Below, one piece after another: positions 14,968-29,890 of a DNA stretch of 42,488 nucleotides. The position numbers were made by a program, and so were the translations under genes. The stretch lies in the IMG/VR virus record IMGVR_UViG_2874945390_000011, one strand, 5' to 3'. Position 1 is the first letter of the stretch, and the number at the start of each line of letters is the position of its first letter. The DNA is from a virus. Lineage: Duplodnaviria > Heunggongvirae > Uroviricota > Caudoviricetes. The notes beneath the pieces are model-generated. The model ran no database searches. It was not told the DNA's origin and saw nothing but the letters and a program-made list of their open reading frames with translations.

Positions 14968-15390
14968 CTAGTCAATCTTGCCGCAGTCAAGCACCCACGG
15001 CATCGTATTACCGGTTTTAGCGTTGGCGTTATCCGGTTGTTTCTGGAACGCAACACTGCGTGCCGTGATGATGTCGCCGCTGACCTTGTTTCGGATCACA
15101 ATAACGTTATTCCCCCATGTGGCAGAAGACTGGCTCTGTGCGTTATACGCCAGCGACAATTTTTTATTTGTCGGTGATGTCTTCAGAAGGTTAACGGTAA
15201 TCGTCCCGCTTTTATCTGCATGGAGACTGTGCATCACTTCGCCATCAGCACCGATGGTCATGGTGTTTTTAGGACCGCCCATCGCAACCACAATCCCCTC
15301 TTCAGAACTTGCCGAACCGTACCCGAGGTCAATCGAACCGGTCGGCCCGGTCAGCGTCGCAGTGACATCCATAAAAGAATAGGTAGACAT
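14968..15390 (-). CDS. tail tube protein
   Basis: 140-aa ORF between sheath and chaperone genes; positional assignment. Confidence 0.55.
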   Translation of the reverse strand: MSTYSFMDVTATLTGPTGSIDLGYGSASSEEGIVVAMGGPKNTMTIGADGEVMHSLHADKSGTITVNLLKTSPTNKKLSLAYNAQSQSSATWGNNVIVIRNKVSGDIITARSVAFQKQPDNANAKTGNTMPWVLDCGKID

Positions 15391-17158: not shown

Positions 17159-17477
17159 ACGCTGTATACGGGTCGACGAAAGTCACACGATAATCACGGC
17201 CCTGATACGTCACGATATCGGCATCACGGCCAGTCTGTCCCTGCGTCAGTCGCTCAGTCGTCACAATCAGAATTGCACCACTGATTACCTGCCCGGCCTG
17301 CATACGACGGTTTTCCAGAGAGCTATCAACAGTAACGACTCCGGCAAACTGCTTTTTAACTTCGCTGTCGCTGCCGATCACATCCTCATCCACCGTTTGC
17401 ACACGGCGTGTTACCCACAAATTGAAGTCGCAAAAATCGGGGTCAAAAAGCACATCTGTTACATCAAGAGTCGGCAT
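17088..17477 (-). CDS. hypothetical structural protein
   Basis: 129-aa ORF in head-tail joining region, co-oriented and tightly packed. Confidence 0.4.
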   Translation of the reverse strand: MPTLDVTDVLFDPDFCDFNLWVTRRVQTVDEDVIGSDSEVKKQFAGVVTVDSSLENRRMQAGQVISGAILIVTTERLTQGQTGRDADIVTYQGRDYRVTFVDPYTAYGAGFVQAHCELLPFDGGIPVEQ

Positions 17478-18018
17478 CTTTATCCCTCACAACATGGGTA
17501 ATCGCTCTGCGATATTGCCCGGTGTCAATTAATGGTTTCGCCAGTTCGGTTCCCGGAGATTCGCCAGCAGCACGCCGGGCAAGTTCCAGTGTTGCCCCCT
17601 TGCGCCCCCGACGAGCCCGGGCTTCAACAGTACTGTCAGCAAGCAGCGTAAAGCCGGTAATGGTCATGTAACGCCTGACGCCATTAGCGGCCAGTGTTCC
17701 GGCACGGTTGAGTGCGCTTTCTGCTCCCGCAGCATTACCATCAAGTGCAGCCTGCGCCGCGGCTTTGAGCTGCGGCACCGTCTGCTCTTCTGCCGATTTA
17801 ACGCCGGGGACCAGGTGAGGTCGTGGCGGGATGTTCTGCTCTGGTGAGCCGTATTCGTTGAGGTAACCGATGCCCGCATTACCAAACGGAACATCATCCC
17901 GCTCGCTGTCTTCCGAAGGGATGCCGACCAGCACATCTTTTTTGGTTAACGACCTGAGCGCATCCAGAATGGCCTTAGCGTTATCCACCCTCGTTGTTAC
18001 ACCGCTTTTGAAACTCAT
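17464..18018 (-). CDS. hypothetical structural protein
   Basis: 184-aa ORF; 4-nt start/stop overlap with the upstream gene. Confidence 0.4.
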
Positions 18019-18650: not shown

Positions 18651-19592
18651 TTAAATGCCATCAACGTACGAAATGGTTTCTTTGTACACTGGCTCGACTG
18701 CACCCAGCTTGCCGTAGTAAGTGACGATCTGATACAGACCGCGATACTGCACCGGCACGCTCTGAAGCGGAACCAGCGGGTAGCGGACGTATTTTTTATC
18801 GTTGGTGTACGCAACCATGCGATCCTTATTCCCCACACCACGGCCTTTCAGCCATTTAACCGCGCGGATATTCAGCGGAACACCGTTCTGGTGATAGCTG
18901 ATGGTGTTGGTCTGAAGGTACGTCAACAGGGACTGGTTACCTGCAGATGAAACGATGATGCTGGACAACAGAGCAAACTGCTCAGGCGGGATCAGCAAAT
19001 CACGCGGAACCACAGAGTAACCAGAAGCGGCCCACGCATCAGACAGCACCTGGTTAATGCTTGCGCGGATTTCGTCCGGTGTTGAGGTTGCCCACGTTTT
19101 GGCAGCGTTGTTGACAGGCACGCCGTCCAGGGTAACAAGGCCTTTCAGGTTTAATGCGGAATCGCCAACATATACCTGTTCATCGTTATCCATCTGCCAT
19201 TTCAGTTGCATACCGTCATACTTCTGCGTATCAATCGGGCGGCCGACCTACTGAGCAGCCTGCAATTCTATGACCGTCCAGCCAAGTTCCATCCCCCACA
19301 GGTTCAGCGGATTACCGGATTTGCCGATATCCACGTTCACGCCAGCAATAGCGGTTGAGTCTTTGCCTACCCAGTTTTTTCCATTCGGATTTGCGCCAGT
19401 ACCCGCAGCGGCGAAGCTGGTATTCGTCCAGCTGGAAATGTCATCTGCGATGGAGACGTCTTCACGCAGTTGAATATCGCGGCTCCAGGTGTACCCCACC
19501 AGTGGCAGGTTCAGCGTCTGGTCGAGTCGCTCCAGCTCCCCGATGAGAAAGGCACCAGAGCTGTCAACGGTTGCCTGATCAAAAGTAATCAT
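18651..19592 (-). pseudogene. major capsid protein interrupted by an in-frame amber codon
   Basis: ORFs 19248..19592 and 18651..19211 are in the same frame, separated only by TAG at 19248..19250; read-through gives one continuous protein of about 314 aa in the capsid position. Confidence 0.6.
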
Positions 19593-19603: not shown

Positions 19604-20111
19604 TTAAATCTTCCAGGAAATTTCTGCATTGCCGTCAGCATCACCGGCACCTGTGAATTCAGCGTTGGTCAGCACCACGTTTTTGCCACTGACTGACGTG
19701 GACATGAATCCACCCAGCGGCACTTTGATGGATTCATCAGTGGATGACGACAACGTATACCGGATCGCCTTTTTTGATAGTGCTGGCATCAAAATCAGAA
19801 CCGAGATTAACGGTCACGTAGCCACGCTTCATGGCGTCGCCCGGGAAGTTCTTGCCTGTTCCCACCTGGCGAACCATGTCCGGCTGCGACGTGGTCGGAT
19901 AAGGGCGCACGTAGATCCCCTTCACCTTGTCTGCGGTATCACCATCTGCCAGCGGCACGAAAAAACCGTCATCATCGTATTTACCAGCCAGGCCATAGGC
20001 AGCGAAGGCGTTATCGGATTTAAGGACCACCGGTTCGACGGTTAAGTCCTGCGGGCGAGAGACAGCCCCGGCAATGCCAACAGGCATCCGGTACAGAAAT
20101 ACATTATTCAT
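19604..20111 (-). pseudogene. small head protein, apparently frameshifted
   Basis: ORFs 19737..20111 and 19604..19792 overlap in different frames and together fill the gap between scaffold and capsid genes. Confidence 0.4.
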
Positions 20112-21338: not shown

Positions 21339-22121
21339 TTATGCTGCCCTTTTCATTGCGAATGGAACGCGAACAAACACGATCTCTTTATAGCAGCGGC
21401 AGTTTGGCAGCTCGCCCGCGTGGCCGGTCATGCCGTCCAAAGTTGGAGGTGAATCCCAGCGGACGAATTTACCTTTCATGTGATCGTGGGAATCTCGGAC
21501 ATCGCCATCATCGGCTGTACGCCAAATATAACCATCCGAGCCAATAGCTATCGCTCGGGCCATATCCAGCGCGCCCGTTGCTCTTCCCAGTTCCGTTCGG
21601 GCAATCAGATCGGCCCTAGACTTAGCAACATCGCCGGTAGATGCAATCTCTTTAGCAAACTGCTCCGCCCGACCACCGGTGACAACAGCTTCTATCGCTT
21701 TGTTCTGGATGTCGTACACCCTGTCTGCGGCCTCGAGAGGCAGAGATTTGATGTACTTGACCTGTTCGGCGATGATGGATTGCATCACCTGGCCCACAGG
21801 AGCGCTTTCCACAAGATTGCGGAGCTCGCGACTGATGTTCTTGCTGTGTTGCCGCCAAACTTTCTCGTTCTGCCGGGTTAGGTCCGCAGTAAAGTTTTCC
21901 GCGACCTTTGTCGCCCAGGGGGTGATGATTTCACTGTAACGCTCCAGCGCCGCAATAATTTCCGTGATACTGTCATTTGAACCATCGTAGCGACCATTTA
22001 CGATGTCTCCGACCGCCCTCGCTATCCTGCGTAGGCTGGTTCGATACCGGATTTCCGCCTGACGGCTCCTGCGGTTCGTCATCAGGTTCGCCGATGCCGG
22101 GCGGCGCTTCATCTTCGGCAT
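21339..22121 (-). CDS. head morphogenesis protein (Mu F / SPP1 gp7-like)
   Basis: Follows the portal gene and contains an NCRC motif (GELPNCRCYKE) recalled from this family; real start probably internal (MTNRR). Confidence 0.6.
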   Translation of the reverse strand: MPKMKRRPASANLMTNRRSRQAEIRYRTSLRRIARAVGDIVNGRYDGSNDSITEIIAALERYSEIITPWATKVAENFTADLTRQNEKVWRQHSKNISRELRNLVESAPVGQVMQSIIAEQVKYIKSLPLEAADRVYDIQNKAIEAVVTGGRAEQFAKEIASTGDVAKSRADLIARTELGRATGALDMARAIAIGSDGYIWRTADDGDVRDSHDHMKGKFVRWDSPPTLDGMTGHAGELPNCRCYKEIVFVRVPFAMKRAA

Positions 22122-23439
22122 TCTCGATGTCCTCGTCGGTAATGGATGCCCCGATGCCGGTTACGTCAGAATTTTCTCGCAAATCAGTCATAGCGGCTTT
22201 CAGTGTCATCAGACCATCACCCAGCGCCGTACTGATTGCGTTGGTGGTGTTTAACGCCACCGTTGAGCGATCGACATCAGACATTTGCCAGAGCGGGTTA
22301 AACTCAAACGTGAAATCGTCCGGCAGCGGCTTGCCAAGTTCCGAACGATGCATGATGTCCAGTATCCGCCGCACAGGAAGACGTAAACGCCTCTCCTGCA
22401 ACGAACTGATGCGATCGTAATAGTTGGCAAGGTCTGCATCACCGGTAGAAAATCCTTTCGGGGACTGTCCGAACAACCGCACCAGTGGGATACCAACAGC
22501 GCCACTAATCTGTTCTGCAAACTGCGAAAGGATGTCATCCAGACCACTGAAGCTGTACTGATGGGTTTCAAACTTATCCCGCGAGTCCATGAGCGTCATG
22601 CCTTCATTACTCTGGAACTGTCGAATCAGGTCGATATTCTTCAGCAACGCTTCATACGCAGGACCACCAAGTGCGATAAGCTCGCGTAGCTTCTCCACGC
22701 TGTAGGTACGCAAATGCGCCTTGTAGACCAGCTGCGCCGCGCCGACAGTAGCGCTGTCGAACGCGGTAAGACGATCCCAGATACGCTCTACAACCGACAT
22801 TCCCCATTCGTTCTCGGTCATCTTCTGCTGAAATGGCAACGTGACGCCATCAAAGCGAATCAGGCGACTGTGATGAATGCGCCAGGCAGGAATTCCCGTT
22901 GCTGTGGTCACCACATCGTAAAACTCAGGTTTACCCAGGTCCGGCCCCATATCTTTAATGCGGCGGGTCAGTGCCGGGTCGACCATCCAGCGGTCGAGCG
23001 GGAGAATCCCCTTAAACTTGCCCTTACCGATGGTTTCGGGTCGCAGCGGGGTCATTGGTGCCTGCCCCTCAATCATGATGAAACCCACCGCGCCGCCGTA
23101 GAGGCGCGACCATTTCAGCACGTCATTCAGCGCATCCCAGATTTGCAACTCATCCAGTTGTGATTCGAGAATGCCACGATCTTTTGCATCAATTTCCGAA
23201 GTGATGCGAATGCCTTTGCGGGTCATATCATCCGGGATAGCATCGACTGCTTCGCCGATGATCCAGGATGAACGATAGGACCATTCCACCAGCATGCGGT
23301 TACGACTGGTGAAATTAGCCCGGTAGGTGGATGCTGAGTGCTGGTTAGGTGTCTGCATCCCTACGCGGGCAATAAAATTCTCATAACCATCAGCTGTGGC
23401 CTGCACAGTTCGCCGCAGGGCTTGTTTGTTTCGTGCCAT
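21973..23439 (-). CDS. portal protein
   Basis: 488-aa ORF directly after the terminase large subunit with acidic C-terminal tail; positional and compositional assignment. Confidence 0.7.
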   Translation of the reverse strand: MARNKQALRRTVQATADGYENFIARVGMQTPNQHSASTYRANFTSRNRMLVEWSYRSSWIIGEAVDAIPDDMTRKGIRITSEIDAKDRGILESQLDELQIWDALNDVLKWSRLYGGAVGFIMIEGQAPMTPLRPETIGKGKFKGILPLDRWMVDPALTRRIKDMGPDLGKPEFYDVVTTATGIPAWRIHHSRLIRFDGVTLPFQQKMTENEWGMSVVERIWDRLTAFDSATVGAAQLVYKAHLRTYSVEKLRELIALGGPAYEALLKNIDLIRQFQSNEGMTLMDSRDKFETHQYSFSGLDDILSQFAEQISGAVGIPLVRLFGQSPKGFSTGDADLANYYDRISSLQERRLRLPVRRILDIMHRSELGKPLPDDFTFEFNPLWQMSDVDRSTVALNTTNAISTALGDGLMTLKAAMTDLRENSDVTGIGASITDEDIENAEDEAPPGIGEPDDEPQEPSGGNPVSNQPTQDSEGGRRHRKWSLRWFK

Positions 23440-24943
23440 CAGGCCTGTCTCCCCAACTGTTCCCAGATATCCAGCGATGTATCGATTGGCGCGAAGGCCA
23501 TAATGAATGCATCAGCAACGTTTGGTGACGGTATCTCGCGTTTTGCGAGGTCTTTTTTACTTTCGACCATCACACGTCCGTTACGGTCGAAATCACGATG
23601 AGGTGTTGTCAGTTCCAGTTTCAGCTTTTCAAGCAACGGACAACGAGAATCTATGCTGATCAGCTCATCCACAGGATACTGTTCTCCGTTGTTAATGGCG
23701 TTAAACGTATTTCTGAAACGGTCAGCCACCATGCCTGAGCCTTAAGATTTGCGAAAAAGTCTTTGTTGGGGATGCCGTTGTACTCGTCATCTGGCTCATG
23801 CACACCAGCACCGGCGTTAAACCTCTGGTAATTCACACGTCGCGCGTATGCGTTCTCGCTCTTCCGGTCAGCGTTAATTTCAGAGAATTTAGCACCGGCA
23901 GACGCACCAACACCGATAGAGTCGTAAACAATATCTGCTTCACGCTCCAGCGCCGCCTGATAAGTACGCTGGCAGCTCTTCAGTAATTCATCTTCTTTGG
24001 CCTTCCATTCGTCGGCCCAGAAAACAACGGATCCGTGACGGTAAACGTTAGCGCACTTATCTGTACCACTGTCAGCCACGTCAAAGCCAATACGCTTTCT
24101 TCCACTGGGTTCGAAATTTAACGTTTTGTGCGCATCCACTGCGGCTTCTATCCAAGACAGTTTGATGATTGTCGCATCATCATCAGACTCCGGAACGCCC
24201 TCATACACATGTTTAAAACCATCCGGATCACGGCGTCGCGCCGCGTCGATAACCTTAAGCATGGTGTCAGACAGAAACGGATTTTCGTCATAGTTAATTT
24301 TGCGGATGAGAGTGCCTTCGGGCGGATCAACAACGAAGTTGCGCCAGACGAAATCAGTAACAAGTCCGGGGTTGAATATGAACCAGCATTCCGAACCCTC
24401 TTTACGGATCGTTGGCTCCAGAATTTTCCACTGGTATTCCGTCAGTGCGTGGGCTTCTTCCAGCCACAACACATCGATCCCCTCCAGTGACTTAATTTCT
24501 TCGATGTTGCGCCATAATCCATAAAAAACAAATTCCGAGCCAGTAACCCGGTTAATGATTTTGTTGTTCAGAATACGGAAACGGTGCCGCAGACCAAACC
24601 TGTCTATCTGAATTTTGAGCAGGGTATACACCGACTCTTCGATTTTATTCTGGATCTGACGGGCACAACAAAAACGCAGGGTGTATTTATTCGACAGAAA
24701 TATGGCAATGCCAGCGGCATCCCATGATTTTGACGATGACCGACCACCATAAAGCACTTTGTTACGTGCCCGCATAGTCCAGAAACTACGTAAAGCCGGA
24801 TTCAGCGTCGGTTTGGATGTCAGAGTAGAAGTCATTGAGGTCACGCTCTCCATTGCCATCATCAATACCTGCATCACGGCGAAGACGATCAGCCTCCAGA
24901 GACACCTTATCAGTGGCGGCCTTGCGGTAGGCTGTATCAGCAA
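23439..24943 (-). pseudogene. terminase large subunit, split by a frameshift
   Basis: ORFs 23660..24943 and 23439..23732 overlap in frames offset by 1; the junction AQAWW / VADRFRNTF reads like one continuous terminase of about 495 aa. The listed start is TTG; true start probably internal. Confidence 0.7.
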
Positions 24944-25532
24944 ATATTTTTCCTACCGTCGCAAGCGTGCCAACGATGGACTCAATACGAACTGTATTGC
25001 GCATCATTGCTTTCTCGGCGGCGCTGATATTTTCAATCAGCATCTTCCTTTCCTGGTCCCCATTAGCATCTTCCAGCGACACCAACCACCGACCAATATT
25101 CTCTGCAGCGACAAGGTTGTTAGCACGAAGGCGAAATAATTCGTCCTCGAGCGTCAACGCTTTAGCGTCCTCTATCACCTCATCTTTGAGCAGAAGGCGA
25201 CGGGCATAACCACCGTGTTTTAATGCCTGCTGGTTACCGGGTTGGAATGGGTTAGTCGGGGGATCGGTACGCATTCCGCGTATCGGTTTCGTATCCGGTG
25301 TAGATTCTGTTTTTAGTTGCGTACTTTTTTGTGTAAGGCCAGTAATGGCAGGCTTTCTGCTGGTACGCACTTTCCTTTTTTGCGTACCATTGCCACTGCG
25401 TGCCCAACCAAGCTTTTTGGCCCTCTTCCTGATAGCCCCTTCTGTAACGCCGTATTTCTCGCCTATATCACGGAGGCTAAGGACTCCGGCCCGGTATGCC
25501 GATTAGATGGCCTCCCAGTCCGGTTTTGCCAT
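24786..25532 (-). pseudogene. terminase small subunit with premature stop at codon 10
   Basis: ATG at 25532 gives MAKPDWEAI then TAA (25503..25505); the same frame continues SAYRAGVLSLRDIGEKYGVTEGAIRKRAKK (HTH) into the 24786..25370 ORF with GNxxALKHG motif. No ATG, GTG or TTG between the TAA and the HTH. Confidence 0.6.
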
Positions 25533-25726
25533 GATTATGCTTCCTGTGATTTACTGTTATCGCTGCCTGTCACAATAGGTTGCTTTAATTCTTCCTCATC
25601 ACTCACTCCTGCGACGCTCCGTGGCAGGGCCCCCCACAGGAGTACCTTGTAAATGTAAGGTGTTTAAGCCTAAATTAAGTCGTATCACGGTTAAATAGCA
25701 AAGAAAAATTCACAGAAGGAAAGACA

Positions 25727-26239
25727 TTGATGGAGTGGATAAATGCTTTGATGAACTATTTTGTACTTCATCCATATCGCCTATGGGGGCTTCTTTTTAT
25801 AATAGCGTTCACAAAATCCACTTTACTCATTTCGGCAATATTGCCACCAGCATCAATTATGATGGCCACTGTAATTACAGTCAGCAAGACGACTCTTTCA
25901 CCATGGGAAGCTGGAATCACGGTCATGAGTGGCGCATGGTGCGGTACTATCGTTAATTACCATCTTGGTATAATAATTGGGCATATCCCTCAACTTGCAT
26001 GTATAATATCGAGCCGTTCCAATACAATAGAACGGGTTCGCCTTCAGTTGCAAAATAACTCTGTGTCAATACTTTTCACTTCGCGCTTTATCGCCGTGCT
26101 GCGTTATATTGCTCCTTTGGTGGCAGGAATGTTGCAACTTCATCCAGTGAAAGTGTATACAGTGAGTCTGATTTCAGCTGCTAGCTGGTCAGCACTTTAT
26201 GTTGGTAGTTTTAGCTTCGTGTTGCCTTTTTTTAGCTAA
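25727..26239 (+). CDS. DedA/YqaA-like membrane protein (moron between lysis genes and terminase)
   Basis: 170-aa ORF with four or more predicted transmembrane segments; on the strand opposite to the late genes; AT-rich upstream region. Confidence 0.45.
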
Positions 26240-26809: not shown

Positions 26810-27291
26810 AAACAGACTTCACGCTCAATCTCACGACGGGTCATCAGCCCTTTCCATTGCTTACCGCCAGCATATGTCCAGCGACGTAGCTGGTCACATG
26901 CGCCTTTGATATCGCCCTGGTTTATTTTGCGAAGAAGCGTCGATGTTCTGAAATTGCCAGCGCCCACGTTGTAAACGAACGAGTAAAGAGCGCCGCGCGT
27001 TGTTTCCGGTATATCGACTTTGATGTACGGGTTAATTTGTCTGGCGACAGTGGCAAGGTCTTTATTCAGGAGAGCTTTGCATTCTGCTTCGGTATACGTT
27101 TTACCAGGCATGATGTCTTTTCCGGTGTGTCCGTGACATACAGTCCATACACCAATGATATCTTTGTATGGTATGTAGCTGACACCTTCCAGACCATCGT
27201 TACCACCTGGGCCAGTGATTAACACAGATGCTATAGCAACAGCCCCGCCACCAATAGCAACTGCAACAGCCTTGCGTAATGATGGCGACAT
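26794..27291 (-). CDS. SAR endolysin (phage 21 R-like lysozyme)
   Basis: 165-aa ORF nearly identical to recalled R21: Gly/Ala-rich N-terminal signal-anchor-release segment followed by a lysozyme catalytic region. Confidence 0.85.
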
Positions 27292-27506
27292 TATTCACCT
27301 CTCGCAGCCTTACGCTTATCTTCTCTTATTTTGAAATACAGATTCGTCAGATAAGTCAGAAGCCCCAGAAGCAGACTTCCCAGCACACCAATCGCAGCCC
27401 ACTGTGATGGACTGACCTGATCCAACCACTGCAAAAACCAGTAGCCGGCACTGCCGGCGGAGGTGCCGTAGGCAATGCCTGTTGATATTTTTTCCATCTG
27501 ATACAT
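27291..27506 (-). CDS. pinholin (phage 21 S-like) with dual start motif
   Basis: 71-aa [30 protein letters not shown]... near-identical to recalled S21; Met1 and Met4 give the 71-aa antiholin and 68-aa holin forms. Confidence 0.85.
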
Positions 27507-27535
27507 ATCCCGCCCCCCGACAGACCTGTGCTATC

Positions 27536-27572
27536 GGAAAGAAAAAAGGCCATCAGCAAAACTCTGATGGCC
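27536..27572 (-). terminator. rho-independent terminator upstream of the holin gene
   Basis: On the minus strand a perfect 9-bp stem ggccatcag/ctgatggcc with 7-nt loop is followed by TTTTTTCTTTCC, 30 nt before the holin start. Confidence 0.5.
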
Positions 27573-28185: not shown

Positions 28186-28260
<75 letters not shown>

Positions 28261-28263
28261 ATA

Positions 28264-28339
<76 letters not shown>

Positions 28340-28341
28340 GC

Positions 28342-28418
28342 TGGCCCACCACCGAGGACTCGAACCTCGCACCGTCAACTTAGAAGGTTGATGCTCTATC
28401 CGGATGAGCTAGTGGTGG
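28342..28418 (-). tRNA. tRNA-Arg (anticodon UCU)
   Basis: CCACCACUAGCUCAUCCGGAUAGAGCAUCAACCUUCUAAGUUGACGGUGCGAGGUUCGAGUCCUCGGUGGUGGGCCA; 7-bp acceptor stem, anticodon stem UCAAC/GUUGA, loop CUUCUAA. Only 1 nt from the next tRNA, so the 5' boundary is uncertain. Confidence 0.65.
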
Positions 28419-28419
28419 T

Positions 28420-28496
28420 TGGTGGCCCTTGCTGGACTTGAACCAGCGACCTGGCGATTATGAGTCGCTCGCTCTGACCAACTGAGCTAAAGGGCC
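28420..28496 (-). tRNA. tRNA with anticodon CAU (Ile2-like, ileX/ileZ type; Met not excluded)
   Basis: GGCCCUUUAGCUCAGUUGGUCAGAGCGAGCGACUCAUAAUCGCCAGGUCGCUGGUUCAAGUCCAGCAAGGGCCACCA; closely resembles recalled E. coli ileX; anticodon loop CUCAUAA. Confidence 0.7.
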
Positions 28497-29488: not shown

Positions 29489-29552
29489 TGAGGTAGCCTG
29501 AGTTTAACGGACACTCCTTCCTGAAATAGAATGGCATCAGAAGGAGCTAATA

Positions 29553-29855
29553 ATGAGCAGAAAAACCCAACGTTACTCTAAAGAGTTCAAAGCCGAAGCT
29601 GTCAGAACGGTTCTTGAAAATCAACTTTCGATCAGTGAAGGCGCTTCCCGATTATCCCTTCCTGAAGGCACTTTAGGACAATGGGTTACCGCCGCCAGAA
29701 AAGGGCTCGGTACTCCTGGTTCCCGCACGGTGGCTGAGCTGGAATCTGAAGTTATGCAACTGCGTAAGGCTTTAAATGAAGCACGACTTGAGCGAGATAT
29801 ATTAAAAAAAGCAACAGCGTATTTTGCACAGGAGTCGCTGAAAAATACGCGTTAG
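29553..29855 (+). CDS. IS600 OrfA (IS3-family transposase N-terminal HTH protein)
   Basis: 100-aa ORF with HTH and leucine-zipper-like C-terminus typical of IS3-family OrfA. Confidence 0.85.
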   Translation: MSRKTQRYSKEFKAEAVRTVLENQLSISEGASRLSLPEGTLGQWVTAARKGLGTPGSRTVAELESEVMQLRKALNEARLERDILKKATAYFAQESLKNTR

Positions 29856-29890
29856 TCGAACAATGGCGACAACAATTCCCTGTTGAAGCG

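Follow-up and report, generated by a model that had tools for sequence, protein, structure and literature searches.

The question raised by this locus is whether a large terminase gene (terL) that is read in two frames is a broken gene, a gene that works in two frames, or a fault of the record. The window, by which the whole analysed stretch of 42,488 nucleotides from the tailed-virus record IMGVR_UViG_2874945390_000011 is meant, codes for the two ORFs concerned on its minus strand. In the ORF listing of the region 22500–26000 they are found at 23660..24943 and 23439..23732, exactly with the coordinates given in an earlier note made from the sequence alone. The first ORF encodes 427 aa from a TTG codon and has the C-terminal end ...LKAQAWWLTVSEIRLTPLTTENSILWMS, also given as ...FFANLKAQAWWLTVSEIRLTPLTTENSILWMS. 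The second encodes 97 aa starting with MVADRFRNTFNAINNGEQ, and its frame is −1 relative to the first ORF, with an overlap of 73 nt between the two. Across the junction, the window has the sequence gct cag gca tgg tgg ctg acc gtt. When an intact E. coli TerL was searched against the window with tblastn, its residues 1–379 matched frame −2 with 98.2% identity and residues 371–467 matched frame −1 with 97.9% identity. As one intact TerL is matched in two frames, the split of terL is real, far beyond chance. Alignments, Pfam and tblastn agree in this with the earlier reading of one PBSX-type large terminase in which the frame changes by one at the AQAWW/VADRF junction.

The gene model was corrected at both ends of the 5′ part. 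The true start of terL is the ATG at 24835, matching the start used in all annotated homologues, and the TTG at 24943 is located within the upstream gene; the length of about 495 aa proposed in the note is therefore too high, and the intact protein has 467 aa. The stretch behind the Trp-Trp pair, counted there as about 25 codons, is 21 codons long (Leu and 20 out-of-frame residues). As a whole, the terL pseudogene, a large terminase gene of PBSX/Terminase_3 type, occupies positions 23439..24835 on the minus strand, is colinear with the intact 467-aa CDS of WP_038341124.1, and is 1397 nt long versus 1404 nt in intact alleles. Its 5′ fragment (23660..24835, minus strand, 391 codons and a stop), recognized by a PF04466 match and by alignment to Sf6 gp2, carries native residues 1–371 at 24835..23723, followed by the 20 out-of-frame residues and a TGA at 23660–23662. 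The 3′ fragment (23439..23732, minus strand), recognized by the tblastn match of residues 371–467 in the other frame, consists of a fortuitous ATG and native residues 372–467.

The nature of the lesion was resolved by comparison with intact alleles. In megablast, 118 E. coli complete genomes covered at least 80% of the query 23400–25000, and among the full-length matches listed, 1607–1608 bases were spanned versus the 1601-base query. The genes of WP_038341124.1 (E. coli FDAARGOS_944) and WP_000204763.1 (E. coli C25), both encoding 467 aa, were used as intact references. Aligned to either of them, the window has one single 7-base gap, and both parts belong to one gene. The intact alleles read GCA TGGTGGC TGGTGGC TGAC (A-W-W-L-V-A-D), while the window reads GCA TGGTGGC TGAC, and the remaining single TGGTGGC heptamer at 23725..23731 (minus strand) represents the deletion site. 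Relative to the E. coli copy, the deletion is called at window position 23732 as GCCACCA on the plus strand, the placement inside the repeat being ambiguous. Read from these alignments, a perfect TGGTGGC tandem has lost one of its units, with a net −1 shift after Leu371. The 1-nt frameshift proposed earlier was thus right as to the net shift by one frame and wrong as to the lesion, and a 1-nt indel is ruled out by the 7-nt gap. When TGGTGGC was put back in silico, an uninterrupted 467-aa ORF was obtained, with two substitutions, A222T and A431D, relative to WP_038341124.1. Outside the gap, the locus is about 99.7% identical to the intact E. coli allele.

The TerL of Klebsiella phage ST16-OXA48phi5.2 has AQAWWLVADRF in one ORF of 466 aa, and the DNA coding for it, TGGTGGCTGGTAGCG, is an imperfect repeat; the perfect tandem, prone to slippage, is thus a property of the E. 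coli/Shigella alleles. The ancestral terL carried TGGTGGC TGGTGGC TG (W-W-L-V-A) as a perfect tandem heptamer, one unit of which was lost most likely by slipped-strand mispairing at replication, to judge from the repeat structure only. The frame was thereby shifted by −1 after Leu371, leaving an ATPase part with a 20-residue nonsense tail and putting the last 96 residues into the other frame.

The identity of the protein follows from domain and structure searches. PF04466 (Terminase_3) was found in Pfam on residues 24–213 of the 5′ fragment with an E value of 2.6e-38. In a search of PDB sequences, the intact homologue matched the Sf6 large terminase gp2 (PDB 4idh) over residues 10–449 with an E value of 1.8e-78, and it also matched the nuclease-domain structures 5c10/5c12, named 'Gene 2 protein', and 8dkr. 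The 97-aa fragment alone had no Pfam match. On the intact protein, Terminase_3C reached 20.1 bits, which is below the gathering score of 26.7, so the nuclease assignment rests on PDB sequence homology to Sf6 gp2. The two-domain layout of Sf6 gp2 (PDB 4IDH; nuclease domain 5C12) and its P22 gp2 relatives is shared by terL here, and the Walker A region reads GGRSSSKS versus GGRGSGKS in Sf6 gp2. The position of the gene between a small-terminase-like gene and the portal gene is also as expected for a large terminase.

In the Sf6 gp2 nuclease, the acidic triad D244/D296/D444 and N441 bind the catalytic metals, and K428 gates metal binding (PMC4678813). Sf6 residues D244, D296, K428, N441, and D444 align with D252, D305, K429, N441, and D444 of terL here. 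D252 and D305 are located together with the ATPase domain in the 5′ fragment, and K429, N441, and D444 are in the 3′ fragment. Unlike Sf6 gp2, the terL of the window is frameshifted after residue 371, and the last three active-site residues are off the ATPase polypeptide. The packaging ATPase domain with its Walker A motif is present on the 5′ fragment; the complete Sf6-type metal-binding set is absent from the ATPase polypeptide in the window and is complete only once the missing 7 nt are put back in silico. Absent as well is a single ORF of about 465–470 aa, in place of which there are ORFs of 391 aa (counted from the true ATG) and of 97 aa, versus 467 aa in E. coli. The 391-aa product is unlikely to fold a complete nuclease domain; missing the complete RNase H-like fold, it would not be able to cut concatemers, and we infer that the prophage cannot package its DNA. 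By descent the gene is a large terminase of Sf6 gp2/PBSX type, and because ATPase and complete nuclease are not in one polypeptide, it is now classed as a terL pseudogene.

The surroundings of the gene are those of a known prophage. In E. coli FDAARGOS_944, an ipaHb prophage is colinear with the window and 99.45% identical to it across 26 kb. The layout of this prophage comprises a Rac-like early region, a lysis cassette, DedA-like, small-terminase-like (TerS-like), TerL, portal, and Mu F-like genes, contractile-tail genes, and tail fibres. The gene order around the intact 'PBSX family phage terminase large subunit' of FDAARGOS_944 (WP_038341124.1) and of other E. coli prophages matches that of the window; the E. 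coli alleles have both TGGTGGC units and a single 467-aa ORF, whereas the window has one unit and two ORFs. The FDAARGOS_944 prophage also carries the same ipaH cargo as the window, at the tail-fibre end. In the window this is an intact gene at 1057..2820 (plus strand) for an IpaH-family type III effector E3 ligase of 587 aa with LRR_TTSS and NEL domains, and in the FDAARGOS_944 copy the same position at the tail-fibre end is annotated as ipaHb. The window ipaH adjoins a PEBP-family (ybhB-like) chromosomal gene at 1–477 (plus strand), and the E. coli copy abuts pgl/ybhD. These differing flanks suggest a flanking deletion or rearrangement.

Downstream of terL, the portal gene (DUF1073/Phage_portal_3) at 21973..23439 (minus strand) is intact and 100% identical to the E. 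coli portal of 488 aa, and its start overlaps the terL stop. Upstream, the small-terminase-like gene at 24786..25532 (minus strand) was recognized by its E. coli homologue, annotated as an HTH-containing hypothetical protein, in which Pfam has weak HTH matches. In this gene, codon 10 is an ochre (TAA at 25503–25505) in place of the GAA of E. coli, and 18 bp are deleted in frame at about 25392. A DedA/VTT-family membrane protein gene at 25727–26239 (plus strand) is intact and 100% identical to the E. coli copy; it is on the opposite strand between the lysis and terminase genes and looks like moron-type cargo. Flanked by a Q-like gene and the lysis cassette, four prophage tRNA genes form an intact array at 28186–28496 (minus strand): Gly-TCC, Thr-TGT, Arg-TCT, and one with a CAT anticodon, whose E. 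coli counterpart is annotated as Ile.

Further lesions were called relative to the E. coli FDAARGOS_944 copy. The major capsid gene (DUF2184/Major_capside) at 18651..19592 on the minus strand has an amber codon at codon 115 (TAG at 19248–19250; CAG in E. coli). Two Logan assemblies with the terL deletion (L016 and L017) have a full-length capsid gene call of 313 aa, and the capsid amber is therefore lineage-specific. Also on the minus strand, the gene of a Gp24-like cement protein has a +1 frameshift by a 1-nt insertion at 19745, the tail-tube gene has an amber codon six codons before its end (14968–14970), and a 4-bp deletion at 3932 divides the tail-fibre gene into ORFs 3924..4835 and 3574..3927. 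A hokD-like toxin gene is frameshifted by a 2-bp deletion at 32061 and a cro-like repressor gene by 5 bp deleted in total at 36187–36193. The CI-like HTH gene next to the latter, at 36347..36754, is intact.

Three insertion elements were located. Two IS3-family elements of 1264 bp each (29489–30752 and 40396–41659) are IS600-like, have opposite orientations, and consist of a 100-aa HTH_Tnp_1 ORF and a 272-aa rve ORF; one of them interrupts a DUF1364 gene. At the second (40396–41659), the alignment to the E. coli copy skips recE/gam, which is missing between the two aligned blocks that the element separates. An IS630-family element of 1142 bp with a DDE_3 transposase is inserted in the early region (37504–38645). 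The insertion elements interrupt both the early and the late-regulatory regions, and the prophage as a whole is decaying, with the cargo (ipaH, the DedA-like gene, and the tRNAs) intact and several morphogenesis genes broken. The FDAARGOS_944 prophage carries its own, different pseudogenes. Its head-tail gene is annotated as 'frameshifted' (26989–27542 of the FDAARGOS_944 locus, L004); the window counterpart at 17464–18018 is intact, with 184 aa and one extra C in the C-run at 17609. As this gene is broken in FDAARGOS_944 and intact in the window, the copies are decaying independently.

Grounded prophages usually look like this, with cargo kept and morphogenesis genes decaying, and the window is in line with published remarks that prophages and pseudogenes often surround the chromosomal copies of ipaH (PMC9046306). 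IS-rich, ipaH-associated prophage remnants of Shigella have IS3- and IS630-family insertions, nonsense mutations, and frameshifts beside an intact ipaH, as in the window. There is no difference in kind between the window and such pseudogenised remnants, except that the lesion here is pinned to the deletion in a heptamer repeat.

The distribution of the deletion was followed with its junction and its products. With an 81-base junction query, 41 E. coli complete genomes were matched, all with 92.0% identity, which equals the 7-base gap. The deletion is in none of these 41 genomes, all of which keep both heptamers. In a collection with one genome per species, an exact 40-mer across the junction had one hit, Shigella flexneri SFBU1023. 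An identical 391-aa product is encoded by CP026836.1 (GCA_002950135.1), which is 100% identical to the window across the 5 kb tested and is cited as S. boydii (PMC12817139). The exact 97-aa ORF was found on at least 184 contigs under labels such as 'bacteriophage protein' and 'hypothetical protein', and since this ORF exists only with the deletion, its contigs mark deletion carriers. Among them are Logan assemblies built from independent read sets and a number of complete chromosomes, S. dysenteriae Sd197 (CP000034.1) and 1617 (CP006736.1) included.

In other Shigella lineages with the deletion, the gene has been damaged further. S. flexneri SFBU1023 has an insertion of about 1.3 kb in the 5′ part of terL, at 6378–7711 of its locus (L003). 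In S. dysenteriae type 1, two elements of IS3-family type are inserted in terL (loci L008–L015, approximately 1007–3608 and 4665–5362), and IS1 truncates the portal gene, followed by chromosomal genes (rlmC-like, ybjO, potI-like). As the 5′ fragment has additional insertions in other Shigella lineages, neither fragment is conserved or maintained.

The features of a prophage pseudogene were found together here: close intact relatives do not have the lesion, it recurs in independent assemblies, and other essential genes are inactivated as well. The split of terL almost certainly reflects a real mutation, fixed and with loss of function, in a Shigella prophage that carries ipaH and is decaying.

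The alternative that survives best concerns the number of times the mutation arose. The heptamer tandem could be a hotspot from which one unit was lost independently in several Shigella lineages, as a convergent immobilisation of the ipaH prophage, which we consider unlikely. The deletion is common to S. boydii, S. flexneri, and S. dysenteriae type 1, in which other lesions of the prophage differ: the TerS-like gene has a full-length call of 254 aa in the S. dysenteriae loci and a stop codon in the window, and the same holds for the capsid gene of full length in L016 and L017. The specificity of the perfect repeat to the E. coli/Shigella alleles would also be in line with a hotspot. Against this, the deletion alleles of S. 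boydii, S. flexneri, and S. dysenteriae are mutually only 0–2 SNPs apart per 910 bp and are 1–2 SNPs per 910 bp from the nearest intact allele, that of FDAARGOS_944; a SNP haplotype table for single versus recurrent origin, with 0–2 SNPs per 910 bp, holds too few informative sites. A two-copy heptamer is a weak slippage hotspot only. The data are explained just as well by a single origin and later spread, vertically or by recombination, and near-identical deletion alleles together with lineage-specific other lesions would fit an early single event. There is accordingly a small chance that the deletion in S. boydii, S. flexneri, and S. dysenteriae represents a convergent 'grounding' of the ipaH-effector prophage by the same 7-bp event. 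If so, recurrent grounding was possibly favoured, since it locks the virulence cargo in the chromosome.

It is highly improbable that the deletion is an artefact of sequencing or assembly and that two heptamers and an unbroken terL are present in the actual genome. A repeat this short might in principle be collapsed, but the identical junction is present in independent assemblies from different laboratories and under different species labels (CP026836.1, SFBU1023, Sd197, 1617, and Logan assemblies), and a sequencing error was rejected on these grounds. The loss of 7 nt in a non-homopolymer context is no typical platform error.

Hardly more credible is a functional two-frame gene, in which a programmed −1 ribosomal frameshift or the reassembly of the two fragments would yield an active terminase. 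The second ORF is in the −1 frame of the first and overlaps it by 73 nt, and the deletion leaves an ATG with AAGG 7 nt upstream, from which the second ORF may be translated by chance. In the overlap, from 23750 to 23660, no slippery heptamer of the form X XXY YYZ was found in the frame of the first ORF, which counts against such an arrangement, as do the single frame of the gene in all 41 matching E. coli genomes and in the Klebsiella phage, and the insertions that further interrupt the 5′ fragment in other Shigella lineages. The capsid, small-terminase-like, cement, and tail-fibre genes are inactivated as well; with the capsid and tail-fibre genes dead, a working terminase would be useless, as there is nothing to package into. 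As far as sequence can tell, a programmed −1 frameshift is excluded.

Two naturally separate genes, the refuting case named in the earlier note, were rejected since every intact relative examined, from the 41 E. coli genomes to Klebsiella phage ST16-OXA48phi5.2, has one ORF, and a reversible phase switch is implausible with one heptamer left and no repeat tract to re-expand.

The locus is thus best read as a genuine loss of terL function, and the gene is an ordinary pseudogene in a grounded prophage, with nothing new in kind. Frameshifted phage genes are commonplace in IS-rich prophage remnants of Shigella, the fragments are already in public databases, and the importance of the finding is little beyond annotation hygiene. 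What is added is the exact lesion, a heptamer-repeat deletion, the corrected gene model with its start at 24835 and a 467-aa parent, and a junction that can serve as a marker. In annotations, a single terL pseudogene should take the place of two hypothetical or 'bacteriophage' proteins. For particle production, the prophage would best be treated as non-inducible. In the sets searched, the 7-bp junction is a clean marker that separates the Shigella copies of the ipaH prophage from the E. coli copies with intact terL, including that of FDAARGOS_944, and it could help to trace the history of the ipaH prophage.
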